Source: Leucoraja erinacea
Taxonomy: Eukaryota
Direction of reading: 5' to 3'
DNA: 64,000 bases
NCBI RefSeq assembly: GCF_028641065.1
Contig: NC_073410.1
Location: 1,364,001-1,428,000, forward strand
The position numbers and the translations under genes were made by a program. How positions within the stretch are numbered: position 1 is the first letter of the stretch; every line of letters begins with the position of its first letter. Shown one piece after another: positions 6,701 to 64,000 of the stretch. The notes below the pieces were generated by a model that saw only the letters and a program-made list of their open reading frames with translations, searched no databases and was not told where the DNA came from.

Positions 6701-9700
6701 CCCCCTCCCTCCCACACACTGGGAATGCCTCCCAACATCACCATTGATGAATCAACATGTTATTAATAGGCTTTAATTCTCTTTGTCCCAGCAGAAGCGG
6801 TCTATCTGCGCTGATCCCACATGTGTCTTCCATTATATGTGTGACTAACGCCAGTGTCTTTCCTTGTTTAACTACTCCAGACGTGGGGATGTCTACATAA
6901 TGGACCGGATGGTGAAGAATGGAGCAGATGTGATGTTGCTGGATCATCGAGGGAAGACAGCGCTGCATCAGGCAGTGTCTGGTGGCTGCATGTACGTGAG
7001 CATTGGGGCAGTGTGGTGTGGTTTGTGTGGTCTAACGTGGCTTGGTGCAACGACCCTTGGCAGCAAAACGCTCCATGACTCGGGCCAGCTTGTCATTCTG
7101 CTGCCTCTTATCTCCAGAGCCTCCATCCGCTACCTGGAGGAGATGGGTCACTTCAGCTTCCTCGACTCGGACAAGTTCCTGCAAACACCGCTGCACATCG
7201 CCACTTCCATCGGCAACGAGGATGTGGTGAAATATTTGTTGAGAGGAATGGTGAGTGACCTTTAGATAAGAAGAGGGTTCCTCGACACAGAAGCTAGAGG
7301 TCCAGAACGAAAGGTGGAGGTGCCTCTTGCTCCGACACTTGGTCCTGTACATGAGACGGAGAGAGAATGAAGAATCAAAGACACTGTACTAACACTATAC
7401 TCTGACTCACTTCAACTTGAAGAAGAGTCTTGACCAGAAACGTTGCCCATCCAAGCCCATCATTTTCTACAGATAGATATAGATATGCCATTTATTGTCA
7501 CTATACATGTACAGTGAAACTGAAAGCTGCTCGTACTCAGTGCATACATACAATTTAGCGCAAAAAAAAAAAGAAACAGAAAAAACAAAAAACAGAAGGG
7601 AGATGGGGGGGGGGGGGGGAATAGGTGCACAAATTCTGCGGCGCTATATACATATATACAGATGGAAGTCCGTGTTGGGCGGTGTAGTCAGTGCATGTGT
7701 GAATTTGAATTTATAGTAGTTATAATTCTCGGAAAGCAACTATTCCTGAGTCAGGTACATGGATAGGGAATGTTTGGAGGGATTTGGGCCAAACATGTGC
7801 TGGTGGGACGTGTAGATGGGGCATTTTGCTCGGCATGGGCATTAGGTCCAAGGGCATGTTTTGGTGCTTCATGGCTATGACTCCATCCATGTCCTCCAGA
7901 GATGCTGCCAGACCTGTGAGTTACTCAAGCACTTTGTAGTGTACGCAAGACTCCAGCATATGTAGTTTTTATTTGTGATAGGAGTAGAATTAGGCCATTC
8001 AGCCCATCAAATCTACTCTTCCCTTCTACCCCTATTCTCCTGCCTTCTCCCCATAACCCCTGACACACGTACTAATAAAGAATCTTTCTACCCATTGACG
8101 GCCTCCAATGAATTCCCCATATTCGCCACCCTCTGACTAAAGAAATTCCTCCTCATCTCCTACTTAAAAGAACAGCCTTTTATACTGAGGCTGTGACATC
8201 TAGTTCTAAGCTGTCCCACCAGTGGAAACATCTTCTTCACATTCACTCTATCCAGGTCCTTTTTGGTAAGTTTCAATGAGGACCCCCCCCCACCTCGTCC
8301 TTCTAAACTCCAGCGAGTGCAGGCCCAGCTCCGTCAAACGCTCATCATTAGTTGACCGACTCTTTAAGGGATAATTCTCGTAAACCTCCTGTGGACCCCC
8401 TCCAGAGCCAGCACATCCTTCCTCAGATATGAGGGGCAGAATTGCTCGCAATACTCCAAATGCACTCTGACCAGCGCCTGTGACCTGAAGCCTCAGCGTT
8501 ACATCCCCTGTGTTTTGTTTTCCAGTCCCCGTAATAAATGCTAGTATTGTTGCTTGTGTGGGCACGGCACCAACACTGTGTGTTTGTTTACAGAGGTGCA
8601 GTGCGGCTGAGATTGACACCTGGGGAATGACCCCCTTGCACGTAGCAGCTCACACTGGTTCGGTGGCCATCTGCTGGCTGCTGCTGGCCAAGACTGGGAC
8701 CTCCAACCTGCAGCTACAAAACAAAGATGGACTCACCCCCCTGGACTTGGCCAAGCGAGGGAAAACACACAGGTTCACCTGCAGTTTTGGTTTATATTAG
8801 TTATTTAATGTAGAACTTGAGGTTGCAATCCCTGTAGTAAGTTGGCCCTCTTGATATTGACGTGGTTAAAGGTAGGGTAGGTACGTCATCGAGGTCTTCA
8901 GGTGGACATCCTCCTTCTTTGACGTTTCATTGATAAGCCCACAGCGTCTACAGAGGGCTCAACGGTGATACCTGGCATCCCAGGTACACCCCCCTCAGTT
9001 CCACACCTTCCTTGCAACCCAATTCTTGCAACTCAATCTTGCAACCCAATTGTTGTCACTCCTTTGATCCAAAGCCAATTGCTGCTTTTGTTCTGCTGAA
9101 TTTGACAATGATTTGATTGCTTGTTTGAGGAAGTGACTCCTCACCCCCATTTCCTTCAATGGACTGGTCGTAGCTGTAGCAACAAATCCCCTGCACCCCA
9201 CTTCTACAGGGTCTTCCGCCCATTCTGGGCAGCTTCAGTTGTCAGTTCAGAGTACTTGGTCTTTTTCTCTCTCATAAGCTTCTTCAACACCATCTTCCCA
9301 TGGAAGTGTCACTTCCACAACCTATGCCAACTTGGCTGTTGTGGACCACAGGACCATGTTTGGCCGGAGTGTTATAGTCACAATGTCTGGGGGAAACACA
9401 AGGTTCTTTTAGAAAATAGGTGCAGGAGTAGGCCATTCGGCCCTTCGAGCCAGCACCACCATTCAACATGATCATGGCTGATCATCCCCAATCAGTACCA
9501 TGTTCCTGCTTTCTCCCCATAGTAAGTAAGTAAGTAAGTTTATTGGCCAAGTATTCACATACAAGGAATTTGCCTTGGTGCTCCGCCCACAATGATATGT
9601 AACACCATGACATACAGTGACAGTTACGAATGACTCAGAAAACACTAAACATTAATAATAATAAAACATTAATGATAAAACACCATTGATCAAGCATGTG

Positions 9701-12700
9701 AACCAACAAAATACCAGATCAAAGGGAGGCTACAGATTTTTGAATGAGTAGAGCAACTACTCGTGGATAAAAACTGTTTATGCCCTTGATTCCATTAGCT
9801 CTAAGAGCTAAATCTAACTCTCTCTTGAAAACATCCAGTGAATTGGCCTCCACTGCCTCCTGTGGCAGGGAATTCCACAGATTCACAACTCTCTGGGTGA
9901 AAACTTTTTCCAGGGGTGCATGGGGTGTGTCAGCTCCAATTCCTAGACTCATAGAAATGAGAAACTCCCTCACACTGTTATTGCTACTGTTCCATGGTTA
10001 TTATCTGCTTCTTACAGACACCAGGAAGTTGCAAAGACTTTGACTGAATATAATAAGAAAGGACAGAATGGGAAGCCCAAAGAGCCAACTGGTAATTGTT
10101 TTAAGTCTTTATCGACATGTTTGTTCTAAGTCTTTACTAAAAGATTCAATTGATAAATTGTTTTAGGACTTTAGTAACAGATGCATAAATGCTTTGTTTG
10201 TTGGAAGTTATCTGCTTTGTGAATTATGCTGGCCAGTAATAACAATTTCTGTGTATCTATTTTGTACGTAGTCATTGGTCGCTGCTGACCAGTAAGGCAG
10301 CGTTTCAAGTTGAAGGTGGACTCTGATTCTTATTCTCGTCACTTTCTTATTAGCCATTCAATCCACACCGTACATGAGGATGTCAGAGGTTTATGGGGAG
10401 ACGGGGTAGAGAGGGGAAGATAGATCAGCCATGAATGAAAGGCGGAGTAGACTTGATTGGACCGAATTACCTTATTCTGCACCAAGAACTAACGAAGTCT
10501 GATTTCAACCCAGCCTTACACAAGCACAACGTAGAGAAAAGAGGAAAAAAACAACCAAGTGAAGAATATAGTATTACAGTTGCTGAAAGTGCAGGAATAA
10601 AGTACAAAGGCTGCAATGAGTTGGGTTGGAAGGTCAGAACTACATCCTTAACTTGTGAGAGGTCCATTCAATTGTCTGAAAACAATGGGGAAGAGGTTGT
10701 TCCTCAATCTGGAGCTACGTGCCTTCAAGCTTTTGTACCGTTTGCCCAGCAATAGATGCGGGGAGGGAGTGACCAGGGTCTTCTTCTTGCGTAAGGGGTG
10801 CACAGCCTAAAGTTCTTAGATCTTATTTGATTGTGCATGCCGGGTTGATTGCATTTGTCGAAACAGGGCGGACCACGTGAAGGTTGCAATCTTCCCACCT
10901 CAGTGACCAGGATGAAAATGGTGCTTCATTACGTTGACTGCTCTCCAGAGACAGCATGGTGTAGATGGATGGAGTCAATGGGGAGGGGGGCTGGCTTGTG
11001 TGATGGGACTGTGTGCCTTCCACAACTATTCATCATAAATGCAAGAGTAACTACATAAGATATAATCTGAATCATTCTGGAACTTGTCTGGCCCTGAAAC
11101 ATCTTATACAAATGACTTGTGTGAGGAATCATAGAACATAGAACAGTACAGCACAAGAACAGGCCCTTCGGCCCACAATGCCTGTGCTATCATGATGCCA
11201 ACTATCATCTACTGCACATAATCCATAAAGGCTCTTTGTATTTTTAGGTCTGTACTATGGCACCTTGTTTTACCCAGCGATTCTGAGCTCGATCATTTTC
11301 GTTATCGCCAGCTACCTGGGGGAATATGGGGGTATTTTCAGCGTAGTTGCTTTTGCTGTTCTCATCAGGTTCACCTTCTTCCAATACCACCGGATCTCCC
11401 ATTACTCCAGGTAAGGTGATTCCCACCAGCGTCACTACTCTTCCCGCCTGCTATCACAGCCTTCCTCTGAGTAAAAGACTCCGTATATTCTGGTCTACAC
11501 AACACAGCGGGGAATCAAGAATTGGAGGGCAAACGTTTAAACTGAGAGGGGAAAGATTTGATAGGAACCTGAAGGGCAACATTTTCACTCAGAGGGTGGT
11601 AGGTGTATGGAACCAGCTGCTAGAGGAAGTAGTTGCGGCAGGGACTGTAATAATATTTAAAAGATAATTGGACAGGTACATGGATAGAAAAGGTTTAGAG
11701 TGATATGGGCCAAAAGGGCCAAATAGGACTAGCTGAGATGGGGTGTCTTGTGGGCATGGTTACGTTGGGTGAAGGGCCTGTTTTCATGCTGTACGACTAA
11801 ATAGGACTAGCTGAGATGGGACATCATGGACGAGATGGGCCGAAGGTTGTTCCTGATGTTGGGGAAGTCCAGAACAAGGGGTCACAGTTTCAGGATAAGG
11901 GGGAATTTTTTTAGGACCGAGATGAGGAAAACATTTTTCACACAGAGAGTGGTGAATCTGTGGAATTCTCTGCCACAGAAGGTAGTTGAGGTCAGTTCAT
12001 TGGCTATATTTAAGAGGGAGTTAGATGTGGCCCTTGTGGCTAAAGGGATCAGGGGGTATGGAGAGAAGGCAGGTACGGGATACTGAGTTGGATGATCAGC
12101 CATGATCATATTGAATGGCGGTGCTGGCTCGAAGGGCCAAATGGCCTACTCCTGCACCTAATTTCTATGTTTCTATGTCTATGTTTCCCTGCCATACGAC
12201 TCGATGACAAGTCAACGTTTGGAAACACTGAACAGACCATTGTGACGAATAATGCATGATTTCCTAATGAATCAACTCCATATGCCTCCGTGCTTCGAAG
12301 TGGGACCGCCCCGCGAGGCCATAAGCCTCAAGCAACCACGTTTGGTTGCGCTGGACGCATGCAATCGCATGCTGGTGGGACATGCCCTTAACACTCTGCT
12401 TTATCATCCCCACAGGTGGCCCAACCCAGTGTACCTTGGCACATTTGCTGCGGGAATCCTTCATTCTTTGTACTGTTTCTACAGCAAGATCCTACCCGAT
12501 ATCCTTTACCTGAATTGTTGCATTTAACAAACATTAAGATACTGATCCACAATAGTTAGAGGTGGACGATTATTCCCTACCAATATCCATGGCCCAAGGT
12601 ACCTCTGAGGTAGAGAATGCAAAAGAAAATATTCCTTTCTACGGAAGCTTTCACCTTCTTTACAATATATGCCAACATGCTCCAGAGCCATTATTATCAC

Positions 12701-15700
12701 TGACCACTGATGCCAGTTTGGGGAGTCTGCACCCCGGGGGCATGAACATCGACTTCTCCCAATTCTGTTAGTCCTTGCTGTCTCCTCCCCTTCCTCAGCT
12801 CCCCTGCTGTCTCCTCCCACCCTCCAGCCTTCCGGCTACTCCTCCTTTTCCCTTTCTTGTCCCCACCCCTGATCAGTCTGAAGAAGGGTTTCGGCCCGAA
12901 ACGTTGCCTATTTCCTTCGCTCCATAGATGCTGCTGCACCCGCTGAGTTTCTCCAGCTTTTCTGTGTAACCTTCGATTCTCCAGCATCTGCAGTTCCCTC
13001 TTTAACACTGATGCCAGGATGCTTTCAATTAGATTTGGATAAATGGTCCGATGTTTCCCCATGCCCCTATACATGTTAAAGTATTTTGAACACTACTATT
13101 TGGTGGCGCAGTAGTAAAGCTTCTGCCTCTCAGCGCCGGAGAACCCGGTTCGATCCTGACCTTGGCTGCTGTCTGTGTGGTGTTTGCACGTTCTTCCCGT
13201 GACCGTGCGGGTTTCCTCCCACATCCCAAATAAAGATGTGTGGGTTTGTAGGGTAATTGACCTCCGTAGATTGCCCTTATGGCGTAGGGAGTGGATGAGA
13301 AAGTGGGGTAACATGGAACCGGTGTATGGCAGGTCGACATCGACTAGGCCGAAAAGCCTGTTTCCACACTGCATCTCTAATCCAATCTAAAAACATCGAA
13401 CTGCTCTGACTCCTTTTCGATGATTCAGCTCCAATAACGACCATTCACTGTGTCAAAGGAAACTTTCCCTCGTCTTTTGGTTCTGTTTCCTTTCATCCAC
13501 CCAGTGTAGGTGGGACATGTTGGTCAGCATGGGCAAGTTGGGTCGAAGGGCCTGTTTCCACACCATGATTGTGAACAACCCATCAAATCTCCCCGCATGT
13601 TTGCCCTCAGTCTTGCTCTTTGGATTTACCTTCTCCCATTCTCGATGATAGCCACCTGGGCTTGCGGGCTATAGTTGAAGGGAGAAGTCGGGCAGGCTGG
13701 GACTTTTGCCTTTGGAGCCCAGGGGGCTTAGGGGTGACATTACTGAGATGTAAATGATAACGAGGGGCATAGATAAGGTGAATGCTCATAGTCGTTTTGC
13801 CCAGAAGTGGGGATTCTAAAACTAAAGGGCAGACGATTCAGAGTGGAGAGATTTAACCAGTAGCTCAGAGGCAACATTTTCACTCGGAGGGAAGTCCCTA
13901 ACTGCAATGAAGAAGCGGATACAATTACGTGACGTGTACACGTATAGGGAAAGGAAGGGTTTAGAGGGCAATGGGCCAAATGCAGGCAAATGGGACTAGT
14001 CTAGAAGGCCAATTTGGTTAGCATGCACAGGGTGGGCTGAAGGGCCTGTTTCAATACTGTGCGGCTCTGTGATGGAGCCTTGTATCATGTCCTTGCCTGA
14101 TGCTGTACAGTGGGGACTGCATTCCCTATAATTCCTATCCAACTCCACTGCCTCTCCAGCTCCGATTGTAGGGATCCAATTCCTCTGCAACTTCCTTGTC
14201 AGTTATTTTCTGTAGATAATATGGTCACACGCCGACTCCCACTCAGAGAATGAGTTGGGTCTTGAGCGTGAGCTACAGGATACGTGTTCACATCAACACT
14301 AGTGGCTTTTAATGAGGTAGATATTGACAATTGGCAGCTGAGCCCACAAAGGGTGATATTTGTCCTTGACCACTGCACCTCTTTGGCCAGCGAAGCCACT
14401 GCTGTGTTTCATGACGCTGCTGGCTACTGTGTTGTTCTGGATGTTCATGAAACTGCTGACCAAGGACCCTGGGAATCTGCACAAGTCTGACTTTGAGACC
14501 AAGAGTTTGACCCTCACTCACCTGATACGAACCAAGCAGAGTCCATCTTGTTTCTGCATCTACTGTGAGGTACGGGCCACTGCTGTGCGAGCGGGCAGCT
14601 TGTTCGTGTGCTTGCTCAGCGCTGTTAGAAAAGCACCAGATATGTTTGGAGAGAAGGAATGGGTGACCCTTTGCGACCCTTCTTCAGAACGTCACCCATT
14701 CCTTCTATCCGGAGATGCTACCTGTCCCGCTGAGTTACTCCAGCTTCTTGTGTCTATCTTCGGTTTAAACCAGCATCTGCAGTTCCTTAATAGTCAATAG
14801 TCAATTTTATTCGTAACATGCACTCAAAGGTGCAGTGAAATGAATTTGCCAGCAGCGATACAATAAAAAAGAACACACAATGCACAATAAGATTTAACAC
14901 AAACATCCACCACAACATTCCTCCTGATGGAAGGCACAAAGTTCAGTCAGTCCTCCACCTTGTTCACCCGTGGTTGGGGCCATTAAACCCTCCGCAGTCG
15001 CCGCTACCCAGTTTAGCTTCCTAAACAGTTTAGTTTAAGAAGGAACTACAGATGCTAGTTTGATTTCTCCAGAAGTGTGTAATTTGGGGATACAAAAGTT
15101 GATCCATCTCATACAGAGGGTGGTGGGTCTCTGGGACATTGCAGAATGCATTGACCTTGTCTATGTTAACCCTGAACCTGCCCCATTATATAATACTAAC
15201 ATTTGTCCATTTTAGCATCTTCAACTTATTAGAGTTAAGCCATTTATTTTGTGCAGATCCGTTAATAACATCTGAAAGAAATTCGGACAGGTGCATGGAT
15301 AGGAAAGGTTTAGAGGGATATGGGCCAAACGCGTGCAGGTGGGACTACTGTAGATGGGGCATGTTGGTCAGCATGGGCAAGTTTGGCCGAAGAGCCTGTT
15401 TACATGCTGTATGACTCTGGTCAGCATGGACAGGTTGGATCGAAGGGCCTGTTTCCGTGCTGCATGTCTATATACCGTCTCGGGCTGCAAACAACTCTAA
15501 ACATGGGGAAAAAAACAGAAAATGCATCTGCAGAGAGAAAAACACATAGTGCCGGAGGAACTCACAGGGTCAGCAGCATCCGTGGAGGGAATAGACAGGT
15601 GATGTTTCAGGTTTGGTACCCTACCATGCCCTCCACAGATGCTGCCTGACCCGTTGAGTTTCACCAGCACTTTATGCTTTGCTCAATATTCCAGCATCTG

Positions 15701-16601
15701 CGGTGCGTTGTGTGTCGAGCTAATAAAGAACACACCAAGTAACGGTCCAACAGGTTTATTAGCACAAACTTACACTGCAACTGGTCACCACCCTGGCTAC
15801 ATCCCGACTAACGGCTAGTGGCTGAAAACGTTAGTGACATATGATGACTCTAAGGTAAGACCCGGACTGGATTATGGATTTGAGTGATGTATAACGTATG
15901 TGTGTTAGTATTGGGTAGAGCAGGTCTACATTGTGTCATCATGTTCTCATTTCTTCAAGTTAATAGTTGCAAGAACGTTGGGCATTGCAAACAGTGTTTG
16001 ACTGGGCAAGATGATGGGAGGTTATGCAGGTACATGTCTAGTGGCTAACAATATTATGGAATATGCAGTGTATGATTTGGAGAATGGTGTGTTTGGAATC
16101 TATCTTATTTAACTTTATCCCAATTTATTTATTTAGATTGTTCAGCCAAAAGGAACGAAGCACTGCAGACTCTGCAACAGTTGCATGGAAAACTTTGATC
16201 ACCACTGCCTCTTCCTCATGAAGTGTGTGGCAAAGAATAACCAGAGACTCTTCATTCTGTTCCTGCTGGAGATCATTGTCTGCCACTTGACCTTCATATT
16301 GTCAGCTCTGTACGTCGTCCACCTTCAGTATGACCTGAACCTTGAGGTGTTCCTCAAGGTTGTTGGTTGCCAGCCTTGGGTGATGGGCTTGGCCCTGATG
16401 AACATGGCCACTGTGCTGTGGGAGGCTGTAGTGCTGAAGGCCCAGATGATGGCCATCTCCACCAACACCGCTACCTCCCGCAAGGACAGAGCATGCGTAG
16501 CGGACTTCACCTGGAGCCACTTTGTGAAAAGCGTGGTGGTGTTTCTCATCTTTGGCCAGAGGATCCAAAACAGCCACGGAAATCTCTCAAACCACCTTTA
16601 A
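3614..16601 (+). CDS. Ankyrin-repeat DHHC protein S-acyltransferase (ZDHHC13/17/Akr1-like architecture), 10 coding exons, 556 aa
   Basis: Exons 3614-3749, 5152-5287, 6881-6991, 7118-7250, 8594-8772, 10018-10091, 11248-11410, 12416-12498, 14379-14569, 16137-16601 sum to 1671 nt with all phases compatible. About 7 ankyrin repeats (GFTPLHHAA, GETPFHFAC, GKTALHQAV, LQTPLHIAT, GMTPLHVAA, GLTPLDLA), about 6 hydrophobic TM segments, a DPG motif, and the CRD CIYCE-IVQPKGTKHCRLCNSCMENFDHHCLFLMKCVAKNN. Confidence 0.9.
3768..4338. repeat. C-rich low-complexity tract in Ank-DHHC intron 1
   Basis: About 570 nt of C runs with CT/CA spacers. Confidence 0.9.
5152..5287 (+). CDS. Ank-DHHC exon 2 (ankyrin repeats)
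   Basis: ctcctaag| then GWNGFTPLHHAALCGHMDLAYLLLDLGADTNLPNDAGETPFHFACR, then |gtgagt. Confidence 0.92.
6881..6991 (+). CDS. Ank-DHHC exon 3 (ankyrin)
   Basis: actccag| RGDVYIMDRMVKNGADVMLLDHRGKTALHQAVSGGC |gtacgt. Confidence 0.9.
7118..7250 (+). CDS. Ank-DHHC exon 4 (ankyrin)
   Basis: tctccag| ASIRYLEEMGHFSFLDSDKFLQTPLHIATSIGNEDVVKYLLRGM |gtgagt. Confidence 0.9.
7975..8548 (-). mobile_element. Degenerate CR1 LINE fragment
   Basis: DERLTELGLHSLEFRRTR...LIETY and a CR1 3' UTR. Confidence 0.8.
8594..8772 (+). CDS. Ank-DHHC exon 5 (ankyrin)
   Basis: tttacag| RCSAAEIDTWGMTPLHVAAHTG...NKDGLTPLDLAKRGKTH |gttcac (weak donor, phase fits exon 6). Confidence 0.88.
8800..9392 (-). mobile_element. Non-LTR retrotransposon with restriction-like endonuclease (HERO/R2-group) 3' fragment
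   Basis: Minus strand reads LRPNMVLWS...VEVTLPWEDGVEEAYERKKTKY...PVEVGCRGF (with stops and frameshifts), the REL domain signature. Confidence 0.75.
10018..10091 (+). CDS. Ank-DHHC exon 6 (linker)
   Basis: cttcttacag| HQEVAKTLTEYNKKGQNGKPKEPT |gtaatt; phase 2 in, phase 1 out. Confidence 0.8.
11248..11410 (+). CDS. Ank-DHHC exon 7 (two TM helices)
   Basis: tttttag| LYYGTLFYPAILSSIIFVIASYLGEYGGIFSVVAFAVLIRFTFFQYHRISHYS |gtaagg. Confidence 0.88.
11843..12185 (+). mobile_element. CR1 LINE 3' fragment
   Basis: KSRTRGHSFRIRG...[14 protein letters not shown] plus tail; near-identical to copies at 30690-30940, 40012-40320, 41776-41951, 50345-50514. Confidence 0.9.
12416..12498 (+). CDS. Ank-DHHC exon 8 (TM), ends at a U12 donor
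   Basis: cccacag| WPNPVYLGTFAAGILHSLYCFYSKILP |ATATCCTTT. Confidence 0.88.
12717..13005 (+). mobile_element. Penelope-like element 3' end (GIY-YIG C-terminus and tail with minimal hammerhead)
   Basis: LGSLHPGGMNIDFSQFC*; CTGAAGA-GGG/CCC stem-GAAACGTT; 12-bp TSD CACTGATGCCAG on both sides. Confidence 0.8.
13101..13390 (+). mobile_element. HE1-like SINE inside the U12 intron
   Basis: ggtggcgcagtagtaaag...ggttcgatcc...CR1 tail. Confidence 0.8.
14379..14569 (+). CDS. Ank-DHHC exon 9 (TM, DPG motif, start of CRD)
   Basis: LWPAKPLLCFMTLLATVLFWMFMKLLTKDPGNL...SCFCIYCE |gtacgg. Confidence 0.9.
15713..15930 (-). mobile_element. Solo LTR (218 bp)
   Basis: TGTCGA...TCTACA termini, 5-bp TSD TTGTG on both sides, AATAAA on the minus strand. 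Confidence 0.75.
16137..16601 (+). CDS. Ank-DHHC exon 10 (DHHC catalytic motif, last two TMs, stop)
   Basis: tttatttag| IVQPKGTKHCRLCNSCMENFDHHCLFLMKCVAKNNQRLFILFL...GNLSNHL*. Confidence 0.93.
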   Translation: MVQPKGTKHCRLCNSCMENFDHHCLFLMKCVAKNNQRLFILFLLEIIVCHLTFILSALYVVHLQYDLNLEVFLKVVGCQPWVMGLALMNMATVLWEAVVLKAQMMAISTNTATSRKDRACVADFTWSHFVKSVVVFLIFGQRIQNSHGNLSNHL

Positions 16602-18879: not shown

Positions 18880-20480
18880 CTGGTTCCGCAATCGCGGACC
18901 CCGGGCCATCTATCCCAGGGAGGGTGGGGGATGATTGGGGCATGGTGGGGGAGGGGAAGGTGGTTGGGTGGGTAAGGTGATGTGGGTGTGGGACTGGACG
19001 GGACAGGACGTGGTCGGGTGGGTGGTTGGGGTGCCGGTGCAGCGCAGTCAGTGACTCTGGGTGGGCGGAGGGACCAGACCGTCCCCAACTGTGCTGCAGC
19101 TGACGGGGACATTGCCGGGTTTATGTCCTCGTGTGTGTGGGTGACCGCTGCCCGGAGCTGCGGCCCCGTGTGTGTGTGGGCACTGCTGACCCACAGCCCA
19201 TGACAGTGCGGCCACACAGGGGGAGACGGGGTGGAGGCTGGCCGTGGCTGGACAGCGCTGACCCCAGGGGGGGAAGAGTGGGGGCTGCCCTGAGGGATGC
19301 GCACCTTTGGCCACCTACACCTTGCTGCTCGGGTTCATAGGGCTGTCACCCGCCACAATTATTCCCCGCCGCACAGGTAAGAAAGTACGCGCTCCGTGTG
19401 TTAACAGTGTATGCTGGAGGCTGCCCTGTCCTCCAGAAGGATGGAGCTGCTCCCTGCAAGCATCTTAATGGTGAGTTGGGCTGTACCGCGACCTCCTGCC
19501 GTCAAGTGGGACAGGGTTGGCGGCCGCTGCCCTTCTCCCGTAAAGTGTGGCGCTGTAAAGTGTGGCCATGGCGGCGGCGGTGTCGCTGCTCCTCCTGTGG
19601 CCGCTGTTGCTGCTCCTGGCGGCGGCGGGGGCGGCGGGAGAGGCCGAGGCTGCGGCCCGGGGACAGGCCCGGGGACAGGCCGGCGTGTTCCAGCCCGCGT
19701 CCGCGCTCACACAGTTCCAGTTCGGGGCGGCGGCGGCAGCGGCGGCGGCAGCGGCGGCGTCCGGGGCCCAGCGTGAGGACGGGCGGGGAACGGTGGCCGG
19801 AACCGGGGGAGAGGTCCAGCGAGAGGCCGAGGCCCAGCGAGAGGCCGAGGCCCAGCGTGAAGGAGCGGGGCCTGGGCCTCGGGTAGAGCCCCAGCCCCAG
19901 CGTGAGGGCCCAAGCCCCGGGGTAGAGGCCGAGGGAGGGAGGCCTGGGCCTGGGGTAGAGGCTGAGCCCCAGGGTGAGGGCCCCAGCCCCGGGGTGGACG
20001 TGCTGGAGCCCCCGCTGCTGCTGTGGTGGAGCGGGCAGCTGTTCCCGCACCTTCCCCGCCGCACACAGCGCATCGATTGCCGGGCCGGGCCGTGTGTGTC
20101 GAGCCGCCGCCGCCGCCACCAGGGCCGCGCCGCCGCCATCATCGTGTACGGCACCGAGCTCCGCGCCTACGAGGCTCCGCTGCCTCGGGCCGCCCGCCAG
20201 GCCTGGGCCCTCTTCCACGAGGAGTCGCCCATGAACAACTACCTGCTGGCCCACGCCGCCGCCATCCGCCTCTTCAACTACACGGCCACCTTCCGCAGGC
20301 ATTCCGACTACCCGCTGTCCCTGCAGTGGCTGCCCGGCCTACCCTACCTCTGCCACCCGCCAACACTCTCCCTCGGGCACAAGCAACAGGCCCGCAGCCG
20401 CGGCCTTGCCCCCGTCCTCTACATGCAGTCACACTGCCAGGTGGCCGCCGACCGCGACCGCTATGTCCAGCAGCTCATGC
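18880..20480. promoter_or_regulatory. CpG island, FUT11 promoter and exon 1
   Basis: Visibly high GC and CpG density against an AT-rich background, overlapping the start codon. Confidence 0.7.
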
Positions 20481-20491
20481 AACACCTACAG
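19568..20491 (+). CDS. FUT11: FUT11 exon 1
   Basis: 308 codons in a CpG island; first donor CAG|GTAGGC, phase 0. Confidence 0.9.
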
Positions 20492-23400
20492 GTAGGCTCA
20501 TCTCAGTTGATTCAGCACCTACAGGTAAGCTCATCTCAGTTGATTCAGCACCTACAGGTAAGCTCATCTCAGTTGATGCAGCACCTACAGGTAGGCTCAT
20601 CTCATTTGATTCAGCACCTGCAGGTAGACTCATCTCAGTTGATTCAGCACCTACAGGTAGACTCACCTCAGTTGATTCAGCACCTACAGGTAGACTCACC
20701 TCAGTTGATTCAGCACCTACAGATAGACTCAACTCAGTTGATTCAGCACCTACAGGTAGACTCATCTCAGTTGATTCAGCACCTACTATTAAACTTGGCT
20801 CGGACAAAACTCTGAACAGTAATAGCCCATTATCTGCTATTTGCACTTTATCCGTTTATTTATTTATTAAGAAGGAACTGCAGATGCTGGAGAAACTCAG
20901 CGGGTGCAGCAGCATCTATGGAGCGAAGGAAACGCCAATTCTCTGGATGTTTTCAAGAGAGAGTTAGATTTAGCTCTAAGGGCTAAAGGAATCAAGGGAT
21001 ATGGGGAAAAAGCAGGAACCGGGTACGGATTCTGGATGATCAGTCATGATCGTATTGAATGGTGGTGCTGGCTCGAAGGGCCGAATAGCCTACTCCTGCA
21101 CCTATTTTCTATGTTTCTAAAATGTCAAAATCCAATCCAGTATATTTACAAAGTGGGGACAAAGAGGAGTGAACAAATGCCTTAGATTAGTGCAAAATAT
21201 AGCTCTAGGTGTGACAGCAGAGGGCAGTGTAGGTCCATGGGAATGCAGAAAGCAGGAACACTGTCACAGAATTGAGCCAACAGCAGATACAGTCTGCTGC
21301 TGATGCCCAGCATTGCACTGGAAATATTGCTCACATTATTGCTGCTGAAGAAACTATTAATGGTGTCAAGAGTTTCCTTTGAACTTCAAATTCCTTTACT
21401 GATTTACTTACACAACCCTAATCTTACCTCAACCCACGCACCCCTATTCCTGCCTCTACACGAGAACATTCAGCCCAACCCCGGCACCATTCTGGACTTG
21501 TTTTATTTCTAATTGCTGTTTTGCAAGAATGTCCTGTTCACGCTGCATTGCATGAAGAAGGCACCAACATTGTCAAAAACACCTTTCCTTCTGCTCCCTT
21601 CTACCTTCTTGGAGAAGAAACGGAAGCTTGAAAGCCCGGATGTCTGAAAATAAAAATTAATGTACATGGGTGGGACAGGTTTAGAGGGAAATGGGCCATA
21701 AATGTTTTAAATTTCATGTGCGATGCTCCACTATTCACTGGGAAACGTCTTTTCATTTTGCACTGTACAACTGTTGCTTGCAAGATGACAATAAAGGTTG
21801 ATTGATTGATTGATAAGCAGGCAGGTGTTGTTCAAGATGGGCTGAAGGGCCTGTTTCCATGCTCTATGACTCTACAACCCCTTTGGCTATCAGACTCCTG
21901 AACCAATCATCTCTTTCACACCCTCTTGCCGAGATGTTGCCACATAATCTTAACTCAACCTCATTCATTTATTCCGTTGTTGCACTTTAGTTCGATCATC
22001 TTCAGATTGCATGACAATATTTGCACCATTCTGCTGTTTTGGATTCATTGTTCACTGTATAATTACCATATACAGTTTCCTTGGTGAACTACATGCAAAC
22101 AAGGAATTTCATAACACCCTGGTGTATATGATAATAAACTACCCCGAATCTGAACTATTTCTTCATGTACCCCTTGTTTTCAACTTCCCTGGCACTGGTT
22201 TTAAAGACAGCCAGAGTTGTTATCCCTGATGCCCTCGACAATATTTTTTACCCTCACTCAGTAGCCCTGATGGTTATCATGCACTTGTTTGTGGGAGCTA
22301 GTGTAAAAATTGGCTTCCCCATTTTCTACCTCTTTTCTGATTGCTGTGTTAGGAATCTGAATGGGTTAAAATCTAAAGAAACATTTTGACATTTACAGTC
22401 ATTTTGTTTGCAGCTTTGTAAAGGACTAAGGTCAATTGTTTCAAATTAGCTGTGGCTTCTGCACAAATGGTGAGCAAATTGAGTCCTGTAATGCAGCTGA
22501 GTTGATTGCCATGTTTATGCTGCTATGTGGTGGCACGTTATATGCCATCATTTAAATTGTTGCTTGCCCTTAAATTGCAGCTTGTCCTCGAATTGCCTCA
22601 ATCTCTCATCTAAAATAAAAATAAAATAAGCAGTATTCTTTTTATCCTGTCCTGCCATTAACATTTTCTTAAAATCTGCCTAGCAGTTTGCATCTTTGGC
22701 CAGGTAACGCAACTGACTGTTCTTAAGCTTCTACCAAGACAGACTTTGAGCAGTGTTTAATTTTATGTTTCTTCTCTCTCTCTCACCTCCAGATTGACTC
22801 CTATGGCCAGTGCCTGCAGAACAAGGAGCTGCCCAATCAGCGGCTGGTGGACACTCTGACAGCGACCACAGAAGATCCAGAGTTCATGGAATTCATCAGC
22901 AAGTACAAGTTTCACCTTGCCATGGAGAATGCGATCTGTGATGACTACATGACTGAGAAACTGTGGCGGCCCATGCACTTGGGAGTGGTGCCGATATACC
23001 GCGGGTCCCCTGTGGTGCAGGACTGGTTGCCCAATTCCCACTCTGTAATTCTGATCGACGACTTCCAATCTCCCAAAGACCTGGCAGACTATATCAATTA
23101 CTTGGATCAGAATGACGAGGAATACATGAAGTATCTGGAGTATAAAAAGCCAGGTGGCATCACTAACACTGTACTGGTGGAGAGTTTGGAGAAGCGGGAG
23201 TGGGGCGTGAATGACTTTAACAAGCCCAACTATTTGAACGGATTTGAATGCTATGTTTGCGATCAGGAGAACATGCGCCTGCAGGCAGAGAAGGCTCACC
23301 AGGAGCAACCTGATAAATTCCCCCCACCAGCCCCCAAGATGGCTGCGTATAATCACTTGGGATGCCCCGTCCCAGAGCCTGGGTTTGGAAGCTTCGATGA

Positions 23401-26400
23401 CATCCCTGACGATGACAGGTACGTCACCGGCATTCTCTCAAGGGTAGTTGAGTTTATTGTCATGTGTACTGAGGTGCGATGAAATGCTTTTGATGCTTGC
23501 TAACCTGCCAGTGGACAGACTGTACATGATTACAATCGAGCCGCTCACAGTGTACAGTTACAGGATAAAGGGAATAACGTTTAATGCAAGATAAAATCCA
23601 GTAATGTCTCATTAAAGATATGAAGGAAAGAACTGCAAATGCTGGTTTCAATCGAAGATAGACACAAAATGCTGGAGTAACTCAGGCACAGGCAGCATCC
23701 CTAGAGAGAAGGAATGGGTGATATTTTAGGTCGAGACCCTTCTTCAGACTGATGGATATTTTGGGTTGAGACCCTTCTGAATGATTAAAGATAGTCTGAG
23801 AGTCTCCAATGAGGTAGATGGGCGCACACATGCCTACTATGTTCTGTTGTGCTGAAGCAAAGCAAGAATTTCATTGCCCTATCAGGGACACATGACAATA
23901 AACTCACTTGAATCTTGAGTCTCTAGTTGATAGAATGGTTCAGTTGCCAGATAACAGCTGGGAAGAAACTGTTTCTGAATCAGGAGGTGTGCGTTTTCAG
24001 ACTTCTGTACCTCCAGTCTGATGGGAGAGGGGGGAATGTCCTTGATTATGCTAGTGGCCTTGCCAAGGCAACGTGAGGTGTGTCAATGCAAGTCAATGTA
24101 AGTAGTTTATTATTGCCACGTGTACCAAGGTACAGTAAAAATCTTGTGTCTGCATGCTATATAGTCAAAATAAAGACATTGCATGAGTACAGTCAAGTCG
24201 TGCACAGGTGTACATGTGTCCCAAGTTAATATTCCCTGCAACCTGAGCATGCGGCTAATGCTACATTTGAAAATCGCAACTTTTTTCCACTGTGTATCAT
24301 GTCATTTTGTTTCTGCATCTTTGTGAGCAGTAACCTGTGTGGAGTTGTTTGCTGCTACATACCAGGTGTGAGACAGCCACAGTGCATCATCCTATTTTAT
24401 TGAGTAATTAGATTCTGTATTCAGATTGAGTTCAATGTGAAAAATATACAGGCTTAGAGACTGGGTCACATTGCACCATTTTTCTACTATGTGGCCATCA
24501 AAAATAGCAAAATGACTTGCAGGAAGTCTGCACAGACATCAAACTGAAAGATGTAAAGATTATTGTGTTGAGCAAAGCCCATCGTACATAGGCTAAAACT
24601 TGGTCAGTCTTCAATGCAACAAATTGACATGGAGTACTGTGAGATGCAACACTGATGTTGCACTTAGTATAAGGTGAATAACCCAGCAACATTTCACTGC
24701 TAGTCAACCCCCTTCAATGGTGTACCAGACTAAAGTGTAGAATTACAAATGCTTCTCAAACCAAAGACCTAAAGCATTCCATGTTTTTCACATGCTTGAT
24801 TAAAGCAATACCCAAACTGCAAAAGTAGCTTGGAAATGCAGGGAGGAAAGGAATTGATCGATTCTGTGTATCATAATTGTGGCCAGCTACTGTTTAGGGT
24901 TGTAACTAAAGGTCACTAAATTGGAAACTAGCCCAGAACTGTTCAAATGCCATAAGTGGAACATTTGCGTTGAATAATGGTCAAAGATGAAATTGGCAGA
25001 CTGCAAGTAACTGAGCTCTCCGATGATCCATCGGCACGTCAGATTTATAGTAAAAGTTAAAGAGGATAAAGGGTTTCAGTAAAGTATCCTCAAGATCAAT
25101 GCTCAGTTGTCGTCACTGTAACCTTCAGAAGCCTAGTTGTAGGCCCCGAGTGTAGGAAAATACCAACGTTTTAAAGCCGAGCCGGTTTATGTTATATCAA
25201 GAAGATGTGAGAATTAAGCTTGAAAGTGTATTGATTTTGGCCAGAAGGGATGAACGAGGGGTATGGGTTGAATAGTTGTGAAATACTGTATTTGATCATT
25301 GATAGCGATACACTGAGCAGAGTATGTTTTGCTGCAGGCTGACCAATCTACTCAACATTTGTATTTGTTCTCTGCCTCTGACGTACTGTTTGGAATTATT
25401 TTACTTAGAGAGCTACCTTTATACATCCTATTTCTTTCACAAAGCATCATATAAATCCAAGTCTTTGTGAATGTAGGGGTTTAATTTAAAAAACGCCAAG
25501 ATATATATAAAAGGAAGATGAGGTGCTGGTAGATTTTTCTATTATCAATAAAGTAGCTAATGCTATGACTGTAAAAATATGTAAGTCAGAGAACTGCACA
25601 GCATATAAACAGGCACTTCAGCCCACTGAGTTCATGCCAACCAGCAATTCCCACACATTAACACTATCCTACACAGACTAGGAACAATTACATTTGTACT
25701 AAGCCAATTAACCAACAAACCTGTACGTTTTTGGAGTGCGTGGGGGTGGGGGGAAACCGCAGATCTCGGTCACGGGGAGACGTACAAACTCCGTACAGCC
25801 AGCACCTGTAGTCGGGATGGAACCCGGGTCCCTGGCGCTGTGAGGCAGCAACTCTACCTATGCTCCAGTGTGCCATCCTATTGTCATTTGCCTGCATTTG
25901 GTCCATCGCCCTCAAAACCATTTCCATCTATCTATCTGACCAAATGTCCTTCAATAATACTGGAAGGTAGACAAAAATGCTGGAGAAACTCAGCGTGTGA
26001 GGCAGCATCTATGGAGCGAAGGAATAGGTGACATCTGGTTGAGACCCTTCAGACTGATGTGGGGGTGGGGGGGGGACAGGAAGAAGATAGGAAGAGGCAG
26101 AGACAGTTGGCTGTGGGAGAGCTGGGAAGGGGAGGAGAAGGAGGGAGAAAGCAAGGACTACCTGCAATTGGAGAAGTCAATGTTCATACCGCTGGGGTGT
26201 AAACTACCCAAGCGAAATATGAGGTGCTGCTCCTCCAATTTGCGGTGGGACTCACTCTGGCCATGGAGGAGGCCCAGGACAGAAAGGTCGGATTCAGATT
26301 GGGAGCGGGATTTGAAGTGCTAAGCCAACATTTCTCCAGCATTTTTGTGTACCTTCAATTTTTCCAGCATCTGCAGTTCTTTCTTAAACATTTAATAATA

Positions 26401-29400: not shown

Positions 29401-32400
29401 GACACAGCATTAACTGTGCTGGGGCAGGAGCTGCAACCTTCAATGGTCCGCCCTGTTTCGACTAATACAATCAACCCGGCGTGCTCAATCAAAGAAGATC
29501 AAATAGAACAAGTTGTCCTACAACTTTAGGCTGTGCACGCCATAGGCAAGAAGAAGAGACCCTGGTCACTCCCTCTTCCCGCATCTATTGCTGGGCAAAT
29601 GGTACAAAAGCTTGAAGGCACATTCCTCCAGATTTGTGCCGATCAAGATGCCCCATCTAAGCCAGTCCCACTTGCCTGCATTTGGTCCATGTCCCATTGA
29701 ACCTAGTGTGAAGTATTGCATGACAGGATTAAGAATGAGAATAGGAACTAAGAAACCTTCCATACTAGCAAAGTACACCAAGATGCCTCATAGGAGCACG
29801 GTTTGACACTAAACCATGCAAGGAGATATTTAGATGGGAAACTAAAAGCTTGTCAGATTAATAGATTACAAGAAGCTTTTTAAAGCAGGTGCGGGAAAAA
29901 TGCACCATAGGACTTGGCAGCTGAAGACATGACCACTAATGATGGAGCAATTATAATCAAGGCTGAACAAATCCAATGGGTAAGATGTAAAAGGAGCAGA
30001 GGGAAAGTGCCCATATATACAGTTTGCTCAGCTAACTCTAAATAGGGCTGCAGTCTGAAGAAGGGTTTTGAACGAAAGCTTTGCCATTCATGCATGCTCT
30101 TGGCGGATTCCGCCTGACCCGTTGAGTTACTCAAGCATTTTGTGTCTTTCCTTGGTAAACCAGCATCTGCAGTAGGTTTCCTACGAACAGGGCTATTTCA
30201 CATTAAAAAAATTAAAGTCAAACTTTGGTGTCAAAGATCATTGAGAGCACCAACACTAATGACTTCTTCCCACTTTTGATAGATGATTTGTTTCTGTCAA
30301 CCATCCCCGTCATAAATGCTGACTGGTGTCACCGAAGCTTGGTTATACTGAAACTGGTGACAGAATGCACGATATACAAACATTGGCTTCTTCAGGGACT
30401 GCAGTCAAAGTATGTCATTTATCTTTTAGTTGAAGGTTTTGTCCCATGTTTTTGCAGTCAAGGTGAACTCTTTAGTGAGCACTGTAATAATACTGAATGG
30501 ATCAGTAGAACACTGGGGTGGAAGATTGCAACCTTCACGTGGTCCACCCTGTTTCGACTAATGCAATCAACTAGACGTGCACAAACAGAAGATCAAATAG
30601 AACAAGTTGTCCTACAACTTTAAGCTGTGCACGCCACACGAAAGAAGAAGAAGAGTAGAACACTCATGTTTCTTTGGGTAATATGGTCTTAGAAACATAG
30701 AAAATAGGTGCAGGAGTAGGCCATTCAGCCCTTCGAGCCTGCACCGCCATTCAATATGATCATGGCTGATCATCCAACTCAGTATCCTGTACCTGCCTTC
30801 TCTCCATACCCCCTGATCCCTTTAGCCACAAGGGCCACATCTAACTCCCTCTTAAATATAGCCAATGAACTGGCCTCAACTACCTTTTGTGGCAGAGAAT
30901 TCCAGAGATTCACCACTCTCTGTGTGAAAAATGTTTTCCTCACTTTGCACTTCCTCTTGTTTGCACTTTGTCAGTATCTCTTGTGACATTTAAAATTAAA
31001 GCATTTTTTATACAGAATTGCAATTGATTCCGACCTTGACGGTGGGTGTTTACAAGTGAACTGTCCAGCAACTTATTCTAACTTCCCACCATTGTCATGG
31101 TGAAATGGCCCAAACAGGGAACAAAACATCATTTATCTGATTGTAATTGAAGTCAGGAGCAGGCTGAAATCTGTGATGTTTAGGGTCGAGACTAGAGTCC
31201 CCCTAGTCCTCACCTTTCACCCCACCAGCCGTCACATACAAAAGGTAATCCTCCGTCAGCTTCGCCACCTCCAACGTGACCCCACCACTCGCCACATCTT
31301 CCCATCTCCCCCCATATCTGCCTCCGCAAAGACCGCTCCCTCCATAACTCCCTTGTCAATTCTTCCCTTCCCTCTCGTACCACCCCCTCCCCGGGCACTT
31401 TCCCTTGCAACCGCAAGAGATGCAACACTTGTCCCTTTACCTCCCCCCTCGAGATATTGAATGGCCGAAGGGCCGAATGGCCTACTCCTGCACCTATTTT
31501 TCGATGTTGTTTTCTACGTTCTCCCCTCAACCTTAGACAGTCAGTGGGAGGTGCAGGTAGATGGGTGGAAGGATAAGGACATGAGTAATTGAAACTAATC
31601 ACTATTCTTGTAGGAGATGTGTCTTTGTAACAAGACCATTATCATTGCACAATACGTCTTTTTGAAGTAATTGATCACAATGTCATACTTGTTTACAAAA
31701 AGCCATCCTTGTCCAAGTTTGAAACTAATGTACATTTTCATTAAATGTAATAAAGCGGATGATTCACATTTCTAAATCTCAAATCTCTACCGCCCACTTC
31801 AGTAAGTTGCTGGTTGGCATTCGAATCTTTTCTGGAGATTTAAGTGTACAATTCATTGTTTAATCATCGAAGAATCTAAGTGGCTTTAAATTCATCCCAT
31901 TATATCTATATTAGCTTTATTATTATTATTATTATTGTTAATTAAGTCATGACTTAATTCCCACACTGACCTTTCTGTCCTGGGCCCCCTCCATTGCCAG
32001 AGTGAGGCCACACACGCAAACTGGAGGAACAGCACCTCGTATTCTGCTTGGGTAGCTTTAACGGAATGATCATTGAATTATGCAACTGTAGGCAACCAAC
32101 CTACAAACCAATGTCAGAATTGCTGGAGGTTTAAGGTAGCTCTACAGATGTGCACAGACGTGCCATCCCTCAATGTTTAGTTGAACATTGGATATTCACT
32201 ATGTAACTTGCGATTGCTTTTGCGGGATCAATAATTCTTGTTCATCCTCTCCCATTTACTGGCCAATTGCTAATATTGTTTAATTTTTTTTTTTTTTTGG
32301 AACAGTTGGAAACAAATGTGGCAGCAAGACTACTGGCAGAGTGCCGACCAAGCTGAAGCATTGGCTACTATGATTCTCCGCAATGAATCCGATGCCAGTA

Positions 32401-32450
32401 AACTGTGGGATTACGTCCATCAATTGATGATGAAGAGGAGCAAACACTAA
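19568..32450 (+). CDS. FUT11: Fucosyltransferase 11 (GT10 family; protein O-fucosyltransferase POFUT4), 3 exons, 564 aa
   Basis: Exons 19568-20491, 22793-23418, 32306-32450 (1695 nt). Kozak GCCATGG and an N-terminal hydrophobic anchor. Motifs [29 protein letters not shown], the GT10 motif [23 protein letters not shown] and the C-terminal [12 protein letters not shown]. Adjacent to CHCHD1 as in human. Confidence 0.95.
20471..20786 (+). repeat. 33-bp minisatellite (about 9.5 copies) spanning the FUT11 exon 1/intron 1 junction
   Basis: Unit CAGTTGATTCAGCACCTACAG|GTAGRCTCATCT; junctions at 20492, 20525, 20558, 20591, 20624, 20657, 20690, 20723 (AT), 20756. Confidence 0.95.
22793..23418 (+). CDS. 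FUT11: FUT11 exon 2
   Basis: Polypyrimidine tract ...cacctccag| [14 protein letters not shown]...FDDIPDDD |gtacgt. Confidence 0.95.
25962..26390 (-). mobile_element. Penelope-like element 3' region with inverted terminus
   Basis: Minus strand encodes GIY-YIG C-terminus ([24 protein letters not shown]); ends are in inverted orientation. Confidence 0.75.
27617..28090 (-). mobile_element. Rex1/Babar-like LINE 3' end
   Basis: [55 protein letters not shown]; microsatellite tail. Confidence 0.75.
30515..30653 (+). mobile_element. Unclassified ~135-bp SINE-like element with (AAG)n tail
   Basis: 11-bp TSD AGTAGAACACT; further copies at 10780-10901(-), 29421-29556(+), 41188-41615(-), 48325-48449(-). 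Confidence 0.8.
31190..31450 (+). mobile_element. Penelope-like element fragment (RT-to-endonuclease linker)
   Basis: [40 protein letters not shown]. Confidence 0.75.
32306..32450 (+). CDS. FUT11: FUT11 exon 3
   Basis: Poly-T tract, aacag| (S)[47 protein letters not shown]. Confidence 0.93.
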
Positions 32451-32997: not shown

Positions 32998-33332
32998 TGT
33001 GAGTTACTCCAGCACTCTGTGAAACTCACCTATCCTGTTCTCCCAGGTGCTGAGTTACTCCAGCACTCTGTGAAACGTCACCTATCCATGTTCTCCACAG
33101 ATGCTGCCTGACCCGCTGAGTTACTCCAGCACTCTGTGAAACGTCACCTATCCATGTTCTCCACAGATGCTGCCTGACCCGCTGAGTTACTCCAGCACTC
33201 TGTGAAACGGCACCTATCCATGTTCTCCACAGATGCTGCCTGACCCGCTGAATTTCTCCAGCACTCTGTGAAACGTCACCTATCCATGTTCTCCACAGAT
33301 GCTGCCTGACCCGCTGAGTTACTCCAGCACTT
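32998..33332. repeat. 64-bp tandem array derived from a Penelope terminus
   Basis: Unit ctgtgaaacgtcacctatccatgttctccacagatgctgcctgacccgctgagttactccagcact, about 5 copies. Related arrays at about 41700-42345, 53935-54165 and 63320-63710. Confidence 0.9.
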
Positions 33333-50861: not shown

Positions 50862-51345
50862 AACTGTGTGTTTTGCGGCGGTGTGGTGAACGCGCTGCTT
50901 TACGGCAGTGGGGCAGGCGGGGCGGGCGGCAATGCTTTACGGCAGTGTGGCGAGTCAGTGCGCTGTGTTTTACGGCGGTGTGGTGAACGCGCTGCTTTAC
51001 GGCAGTGGGGCAGGTGTGGTGAACGCGCTGCTTTACGGCAGTGGGGCAGTGTGGCAGGTGGGGCGGGCGATGCTACTTTACGGCAGTGTGGCGAGTCAGT
51101 GCGCTGTGTTTTGCGGCGGTGTGGTGATCGTGGTGCTTTACGGCAGTGGGGCAGGCGGGGCGGGCGGGGCTGCTTTACGGCAGTGTGGCGAGTCAGTGCA
51201 CTGTGTTTTACGGCGGTGTGGTGAACGCGCTGCTTTACGGCAGTGTGGCAGGCGGGGCGGGCGGGGCTACTTACGGCAGTGTGGCGGCGGCGGGCGGCGG
51301 TGGGGGCGGGGCCTACACGGTTCTCCCCTCTCCTGTACTCGGGGC
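50862..51345 (+). promoter_or_regulatory. CHCHD1 promoter CpG island made of a compound minisatellite (TTTACGGC x10, GC boxes)
   Basis: Ten exact TTTACGGC plus three variants, and several GGGGCGGG boxes directly upstream of the ATG. Confidence 0.7.
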
Positions 51346-51347
51346 CG

Positions 51348-51484
51348 ATGGCGGGCGGCGGGAACGCGCTGCGGGCGCGGCTGGGCCTGGGCCCGGGGGC
51401 TGGCGAGCGGGAGGTCGGTGCTCAGGCCCAGCCGGCCCCTGGTGCTGGCCGACAGGGTGGCGAACCGCAGGAGGCGGCTGGGCG
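51348..51484 (+). CDS. CHCHD1: CHCHD1 exon 1
   Basis: [18 protein letters not shown] matches the conserved CHCHD1 N-terminal segment; donor GTGAGT; the ATG frame is offset by 1 nt. Confidence 0.8.
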
Positions 51485-62660: not shown

Positions 62661-64000
62661 GCAGGCACTGGACAGAAACATCAGTGTGGGAATGGGAAGG
62701 GGAGTTCAAGTGTTTGGCAACTTAGGCTAAGGCGGACAGAACGAAGGTGTTCAGCAAAAGCTCAGTATATATTTAAAAAATAAATAGACAATAATAGTGC
62801 AAAGTGAAAAATAATGTCGCCAAGTCTATATATATATATATATATATATAGTTTGGATCCTATTGTGAGGTTGCAGTGGCTGCTGCACTGACACAGTCTG
62901 AAGCAGCAACGGACTGGAATGTGGTCTATCAACCTCCTGCAGATGGTCACTCCCATGTGCTCTTGTCTTCACTAATGACTGAAAAGAGGAGATTGGGGCT
63001 GATCTGAAGGAAATGTTTAAAATTATAGCATTACAATAGGGTGAGCAGAGTGATGGCAAAGAGCAGAAGTCAAAGCTATTGAGAAGGTGGTCACCCAAAC
63101 ACTGGGGTGGGGACATGGAGTTGTGCCACAGGGAGTGGAAGAGGAGATGCATTGAAGCTGAACCTGGAGGAGCAGCAACAGTCAAAACCAACAACTATTT
63201 CCTTCGCTCTATAGATGCTGCTGCACCCGCTGAGTTTCTCCAGCACTTGTGTGTACCTTCGATTTTCCAGCATCTGCAGTTCCTTCTTGAACACAAATCC
63301 AACAACTTGACTGAAGATAGACACAGAGTGCTGGAGTAACTCAGCGGGGCAGGCAGAATCTGTGGAGAACATGGATAGGTGACGTTTCACAGAGTGCTGG
63401 AGTAACTCAGCGGGTGCAGCAGCATCTATGGAGCTAAGGAAATAGGTAACGTTTCGGGTCGAAACCCTTCCGGGTTTCGGCCCGAAACGTTGCCTATTTC
63501 CAGAAGGTTTCGGCCCGAAACGTTTCCCTATTTCGGCTCCATAGATGCTGCTGCCCCATAACTCAGTGGGTCAGGCAGCATCTGTGGAGAACGTGGCCTA
63601 GGTGACGTTTCACAGAGTGCTGGGGTAAACTCAGTTGGTCAGGCAGCATCTGTGGAGAACATGGATAGGTGACGTTTCACAGAGTGCTGGAGTAACTCAG
63701 CGGGTCAGGGGGCCGAATGGCCTGTTACAATACTGTACAACTCCGTGAGTCTACATGGTTAACACTGATATATATATACAGGTTAGGAGTAATGACAAAC
63801 CACGCAAATCCTGGCGGGGCGCAACTGCTAGAATTCCCCTTTCCCCTGACTCTCGAAGACGCGAATGGTCACCCATTCCTTCTCCCCAGATATGCTGCCT
63901 GTCCCGCTGAGTTACTCCAGCATGTTGTGTCTACCTTCGGTGTAAACCTGCATCTGCAGTTCCCTCCCACACATGAGGCAGCAGTTGTAAATTGATAGGA

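Follow-up and report, generated by a model that had tools for sequence, protein, structure and literature searches.

A tandem array of in-frame donors at the FUT11 exon 1 boundary of a skate, and the use of its first copy

A minisatellite lies at the start of intron 1 of the skate FUT11 gene, with its first unit across the exon 1/intron 1 boundary, and seven further GT donors are repeated within the intron after the native one. We hold it to be likely that the first donor of this minisatellite is the one used, and that the later copies are most likely silent intron. In all four RNA-like contig sets that are informative, which come from four studies of organisms A and B, donor 1 is joined to exon 2. 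Normal splicing goes through this most upstream donor as far as contigs can show, rare forms being lost from them. The array most likely does no harm, and human genes have repeats of the same kind.

The gene and its array

The window is the whole stretch of DNA analysed, 64 kb long. Pfam matches to Glyco_tran_10_N in exon 1 and to Glyco_transf_10 in exon 2, together with closest matches named FUT11, identify the gene as FUT11/POFUT4. As described in the accessible part of the source, FUT11 is a protein O-fucosyltransferase acting on EMI domains, with a C-terminal GDP-fucose-binding Rossmann-like domain (PMC11949838). Exon 2 is 100% identical to that of Amblyraja radiata FUT11 (as rounded by the tool) and 88-90% to those of other rays. 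The first-pass annotation had placed the exon 1 boundary at 20491, in phase 0, and the acceptor at 22793, and both are confirmed by spliced contigs. The features are as follows:

19568 to 20491, plus strand: coding exon 1 of FUT11/POFUT4 (ATG at 19568, 924 nt, 308 codons, phase-0 end), containing Glyco_tran_10_N and the beginning of the C-terminal domain
20471 to 20503, plus strand: unit 1, made up of the final 21 exon nt, the donor in use, CAG/GTAGGC (cut after 20491), and the first 12 intron nt
20504 to 20602, plus strand: units 2 to 4, whose donors match the native one in strength or exceed it slightly (cut sites after 20524, 20557 and 20590) and are not seen in use
20603 to 20767, plus strand: units 5 to 9, with weaker GTAGAC donors (20623, 20656, 20689 and 20755) and the GT of unit 8 (20722) lost
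20768 to 20786, plus strand: partial tenth unit, running up to the LINE fragment
20786 to 20867, plus strand: fragment of a putative LINE 3' end, about 95% like other copies (best 40 of 882 candidates scored)
22793 to 23418, plus strand: exon 2, beginning IDSYG, with a strong acceptor (pyrimidine share 0.94)
32306 to 32450, plus strand: last coding exon; the exons give a donor-1 protein of 564 aa

TRF reports the intron 1 array at 20483-20786, with a period of 33, 9.2 copies, 94% matches and a score of 517. Read in register from 20471, each 33-bp unit is made of 21 nt from the end of exon 1 and 12 nt from the start of intron 1, in agreement with the nine or so copies first described. GT is found at the donors of copies 1-7 and 9, and copy 8 (20722) reads CAG/ATAGAC. 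The eight GT donors of the first-pass annotation are indeed present, in frame and stop-free, but their spacing is uneven and not exactly 33 nt throughout, the last one lying 66 nt past the seventh. Inserts of (n-1) x 11 residues would likewise stay in frame, but use of the eighth GT donor would add 88 residues and not 77. The distal copies had also been seen as mimicking the spliced continuation QHLQ-IDS; this likeness is a by-product, and the IDS copy is the very one whose GT has decayed to AT.

Copies 2 and 3 are identical, as are copies 6 and 7; between copy 1 and the other copies, 3-7 of the 33 positions differ. The unit is confined to one genomic locus; a dispersed repeat was considered as its origin and rejected, given the single match in G000. 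The reading frame remains open through the array, up to a first stop at 20813-20815. This in-frame, stop-free state is no more than chance would give, since the period is divisible by 3 in 7 of the 12 minisatellites of the window and the observed substitution set would keep the unit stop-free 79% of the time.

The fragment at 20786-20867 corresponds to the end of a reverse-transcriptase-like ORF and the 3' tail region of a putative LINE, as judged by eye from the translated ORF pieces L005, L007 and L009. The stop at 20813-20815 belongs to this fragment and is in frame with the array, and any read-through of the intron would terminate there. The junction between array and LINE is bridged in the relatives by none of the contig pieces listed.

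Exon 1 has a repeat zone of its own: its stem region (19654-19995) is a coding tandem-repeat zone with TRF periods of 12, 18, 20 and 72 bp. The protein encoded in the window has 564 aa and that of A. radiata 611 aa, with the difference sitting in this zone, and FUT11 is about 430-490 aa long in sharks and other rays. Real length variation of skate FUT11 is that of the stem repeat zone and not of the donor array.

Neighbouring sequences

Upstream of FUT11, at 6849-16601, lie parts of a gene that encodes ankyrin repeats and a DHHC palmitoyltransferase domain. The exons of CHCHD1 (mS37) are at 51397-57102, with GC-rich tandem arrays directly upstream (50880-51286) and TG-rich arrays from the end of the first exon (51514-53529). 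FUT11 is joined to CHCHD1 sequence in some ray and marsupial models (P0134, P0078). A related unit of 66-68 bp, SINE-derived in appearance when judged by eye, forms five arrays (5441-5567, 33049-33331, 41949-42103, 53907-54171 and 63559-63709), and short segments have often been amplified in tandem in this region.

Donor strength and donor use

Donor strength was taken as pairing with the U1 5' end from the same genome, expressed as duplex energy. Donors 2 and 3 form 8 Watson-Crick pairs with U1 (-11.0 kcal/mol) and deviate from the consensus only at +6, while donors 1 and 4 form 7 Watson-Crick pairs plus a wobble (-10.7 kcal/mol). The first-pass annotation was right to rank donors 2 and 3 (CAG/GTAAGC) above the native CAG/GTAGGC, and the gap between them is small. 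Donors 5-7 and 9, at -8.0 kcal/mol, are weaker than the native donor. The sequence of the latter has a consensus value of 89 in the scoring given in the available part of PMC1557585, so that donor 1 is strong in its own right. Predicted RNA accessibility is alike for donors 1-4 (mean unpaired 0.27-0.36), and RNA structure was rejected as the cause of donor 1 choice because accessibility shows no difference across them.

Eight of the 24 sequencing runs listed were compared with the window, five of them RNA or RNA-like. X1, X3, X4 and X15 were classed as RNA-like solely because their contigs join exons, no run being on record as RNA. The exon 1 stretch 20000-20491 is partly covered by RNA-like contigs. 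X1, X3 and X4 (organism A, three studies) each have one contig joining 20491 to 22793, with GT..AG. Their depth is zero at 20575-20689, and at 20460-20574 it is fully accounted for by the spliced contig. X15 (organism B) has a single 1706-nt record of depth 114, which departs at 20491 and continues into the first 30 nt of exon 2.

Among the joints listed, no later donor is joined to the acceptor in any of these four contig sets, and contigs drop rare forms; by our estimate, at the depths of 9-14 in X1, X3 and X4 a form below roughly 10-15% could be missed. The junction count proposed in the first-pass annotation thus gives donor 1 to 22793 in every informative set and, with the same reserve about rare forms, nothing from the donors that follow. 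In the raw-read RNA run X22, none of 7.3 million records (about 6% of the run) fell on exons 1 and 2, and only repeats were matched. On the protein side, no skate or ray FUT11 with an insert was found among 7992 scored candidates or the cluster members examined, and the closest protein, A. radiata FUT11, is a single model free of insert. The repeat after the donor is likewise absent from seven exon-1 read-through ORFs taken from other contigs.

Variant alleles in the copies, pooled from the window copies and from the substitutions of relatives among the rows listed, number 16, of which 4 are synonymous against 4.3 expected (synonymous p 0.71). Coding selection had also been considered from a third-position excess (8 of 14 variable places), and this was rejected when the excess disappeared against a base-matched null (p 0.22). 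Array copies drift with no sign of coding constraint. With the array missing from the spliced contigs and synonymous alleles not in excess, this is not the pattern of a coding VNTR.

The array in related species

The first-pass annotation had suggested looking for the array in other individuals and species. It is also found in DNA-like contigs of two related species, organisms C and D, which run from exon 1 into the array and carry their own variants. X16 contributes a 195-nt contig that covers 20465-20659 and shows 18 differences from the window, X17 a contig spanning 20200-20526, and X20 a contig spanning 20200-20512, with 55 records placed, 35 of which fit two places. Unit sequences vary between runs. 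In organism C, X17 has A at +4 of donor 1 itself, and X16 has G at +4 of donor 2 and GTAGAC as donor 3. The stronger-than-native donors 2 and 3 are not retained in the relatives.

Summed over the array, X20 has a much greater depth than X16 and X17, which hints at a longer array, though contig depth is not copy number. Copy numbers derived from that depth (7.6, 12.9 and 108.9 for X16, X17 and X20) were discarded as inflated by contig overlaps.

Organism A is probably the window's species or its sister, since its samples segregate for window alleles at several exon positions. From their relatedness, organisms A and B should also carry the array; for organism A, this is suggested by the occurrence of the array both in the window and in C and D, which are less closely related. 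One organism A sample (X4) has a cluster of exon-1 differences at 20323-20355, mostly common to C and D, while another is window-like there; these are either deep haplotypes or a label covering two species.

How the array may have formed and how its donor may be chosen

A 33-nt segment would have been duplicated in a skate ancestor, and the array would then have expanded and contracted through slippage or unequal exchange. Since neighbouring copies are identical and the exon copy is the outlier, tandem turnover seems to have gone on with the true exon held apart.

For donor choice, the model is the human F7 gene. The first-pass annotation proposed the skate array as a natural test of how a donor is selected; this is a fair reading, but not a new one, as the same anatomy was dissected in F7 in 2006 with 50 minigenes, in which the upstream site wins (PMC1557585, as far as its accessible text goes). 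According to the same text, only the most upstream donor of the 37-bp VNTR in F7 intron 7 (IVS7) is used, and its inactivation activates the next one. A +4 G-to-A gain downstream left the upstream site in exclusive use, perfect-consensus downstream sites took about 70-90% of splicing, and adding or removing units was without effect on donor choice (PMC1557585).

By analogy with F7, the most upstream of the closely spaced skate donors would be chosen first, scanning being the mechanism assumed here. The one-base +4 gain at donors 2 and 3 would be insufficient for takeover, and the later donors would act merely as fallbacks upon damage to donor 1. As donors 2 and 3 are intermediate between the competing and the non-competing F7 constructs, there may be room for a leak.

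Alternative explanations

Such a leak would make the array an in-frame ladder of the IFI6/CBS type: donor 1 would be dominant, donors 2 and 3 would be used in a few to tens of percent, and POFUT4 would gain 11 or 22 residues in a surface loop. Downstream repeat donors are in use at IFI6 (6-16) intron 2 and CBS intron 13, where the accessible parts of the reports describe two of them beside the authentic one (PMC1557585, PMC4526556). In the skate, every donor is in frame, and U1 pairing is slightly stronger at donors 2 and 3. The protein might also accommodate the residues. The AlphaFold model of A. radiata FUT11, whose pTM of 0.49 is pulled down by an extended disordered stem, places the exon 1/exon 2 junction after helix 342-351 and before strand 356-359, at a predicted loop-to-strand boundary. 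A leak is predicted to insert 11 residues per unit in the loop that links the DRDRY helix to the IDSY strand, and the inserts would fall in the GDP-fucose-binding domain of this EMI-domain O-fucosyltransferase, as the domain is described in the available part of PMC11949838. A gecko RefSeq model bears one unit at the same junction, and the insert is looped out of its predicted structure (see below).

Against this, a later-donor junction occurs in none of the four contig sets, one of them at depth 114, even if contigs drop rare forms; skate and ray proteins with an insert are absent from the candidates and cluster members examined; the copies show no coding constraint; and the strong donors 2-3 are lost in organism C. 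The junction itself is conserved: of 194 FUT11 proteins examined, 170 could be scored and 24 could not, and 168 of the 170 keep the spacing unchanged; the alignment to human FUT9 has no gap. The ladder of length isoforms put forward in the first-pass annotation is therefore unsupported, and a leak of the IFI6/CBS type seems unlikely.

It is highly improbable that the intron is removed by recursive splicing, in which donor 1 would join the AG of a CAG/GT in one of the units, a donor would be restored there, and a second step would yield the normal mRNA. An AG does stand beside the GT in every unit, units 4-9 are 99-264 nt from donor 1, and the mature product would equal the observed one. However, the pyrimidine share ahead of the inner AGs is 0.47-0.59, as compared to 0.94 at the true acceptor, and no inner-AG joint is present among the joints listed. 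Recursive splice sites are known mostly from very long introns, and intron 1 has only 2.3 kb. Finally, an assembly artefact is scarcely credible: the exact copy number is that of the assembly, but the contigs of C and D enter the array from exon 1 with variants of their own, the 195-nt one over 20465-20659, and the window copies differ among themselves in an ordered way.

A possible parallel in a gecko

Both outliers to the conserved junction spacing are from Sphaerodactylus townsendi. The RefSeq model P0033 (XP_048359053.1) has one extra 8-residue unit, VSLMQHVQ, at the same junction, and the UniRef model P0034 (A0ACB8ET48) has eight such units. The gecko repeat consists of the end of exon 1 plus a V-S dipeptide, in frame. 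The leading V-S fits an intron start of the form GT(A/G)AG(C/T), and the insert is most likely an independent donor-spanning array, judging from the protein models; its unit has 8 residues, or presumably 24 nt, as against 11 residues in the skate. It looks like the RefSeq model uses an apparent donor 2, or else contains an annotation slip. Its cluster has one member, with no insert-free isoform on record. The predicted structure keeps the helix and the strand and loops the insert out, with moderate confidence (pLDDT about 60-73). In three other geckos (Euleptes, Paroedura and Eublepharis), FUT11 models lack the insert, and the end of Euleptes exon 1 resembles the first copy of the gecko repeat. 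When the gecko repeat region was used as the query, 5 matches came up, with no further insert-bearing FUT11 protein among them.

The first units of minisatellites cover 0.5-1.2% of the 64-kb window, so that by rough reasoning chance alone could plausibly have placed another array at this donor, given many lineages. Detection through in-frame protein models makes the recurrence less expected, and a mild hotspot is possible. That the skate and gecko cases are both in frame is an ascertainment effect.

A broader reading would make the exon 1 donor a recurrent site of in-frame amplification, used independently by skates (33 nt) and by the dwarf gecko (24 nt). The gecko would splice mainly at donor 2 and produce a functional POFUT4 with 8 residues inserted in a loop, and those skates that have long arrays would leak likewise. 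We regard this whole as decidedly unlikely. If true, donor-spanning repeats would be a way by which loops can repeatedly be inserted into the conserved core of an enzyme, and skate and gecko would form a natural contrast between first-donor and second-donor choice. If the second donor of the gecko is really used, the same junction would have opposite outcomes, and the rule of donor choice would become testable in one gene.

Comparison with known boundary-spanning repeats

The IFI6 repeat unit is in frame. Among the titles listed, none was of a paper on the skate FUT11 donor array, in a literature searched mostly without subscription papers, and a separate search for an example in UPF3A had no result. 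Where known repeats are described in the accessible text of PMC1557585, LMNB2 and PDGF use the first donor only. In amphioxus, the "mirages" of Adh3 and of the globins BflGb6 and BflGb9 are minisatellite-like duplications of exon-intron boundaries (PMC3087553, from its available part).

The skate array has three features of the F7 and mirage type: a first unit spanning the boundary, a repeated donor and use of the upstream donor (contigs dropping rare forms). As in F7, where the available parts of PMC1557585 and PMC6627357 describe 5-9 donor copies that follow, the first unit lies across the exon-intron boundary and the most upstream donor is used. In the same sources, F7 units are 37 nt long and out of frame, take 4 nt from the exon and carry identical donors, whereas those of skate FUT11 are 33 nt long, in frame, with 21 exon nt and graded donors, and they follow a first exon. 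Skate donors 2 and 3, consensus except at +6, have a strength outside the range of the F7 constructs in the text available. As in IFI6 and CBS, the donor is repeated many times; unlike there, going by the accessible accounts of both genes, downstream use is not seen in the skate contigs, which drop rare forms. What those accounts describe for IFI6 and CBS is a ladder of the kind proposed in the first-pass annotation. Mirages are also boundary duplications, which are length-unstable, evolve in concert within a cluster and, in the part of PMC3087553 available, have no reported effect on regular splicing. They differ from the skate array in being cephalochordate, in having units of 10-160 bp and in affecting both donor and acceptor sides (PMC3087553, same part).

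As it stands, the skate array belongs to a repeat type that has been known since the 1990s, and its outcome, use of the first donor, is the usual one. What it adds is a natural case in which the downstream donors are one base nearer to the U1 consensus, between the competing and non-competing F7 constructs, together with a cross-species series (the window and organisms C and D) in which donor strengths differ.
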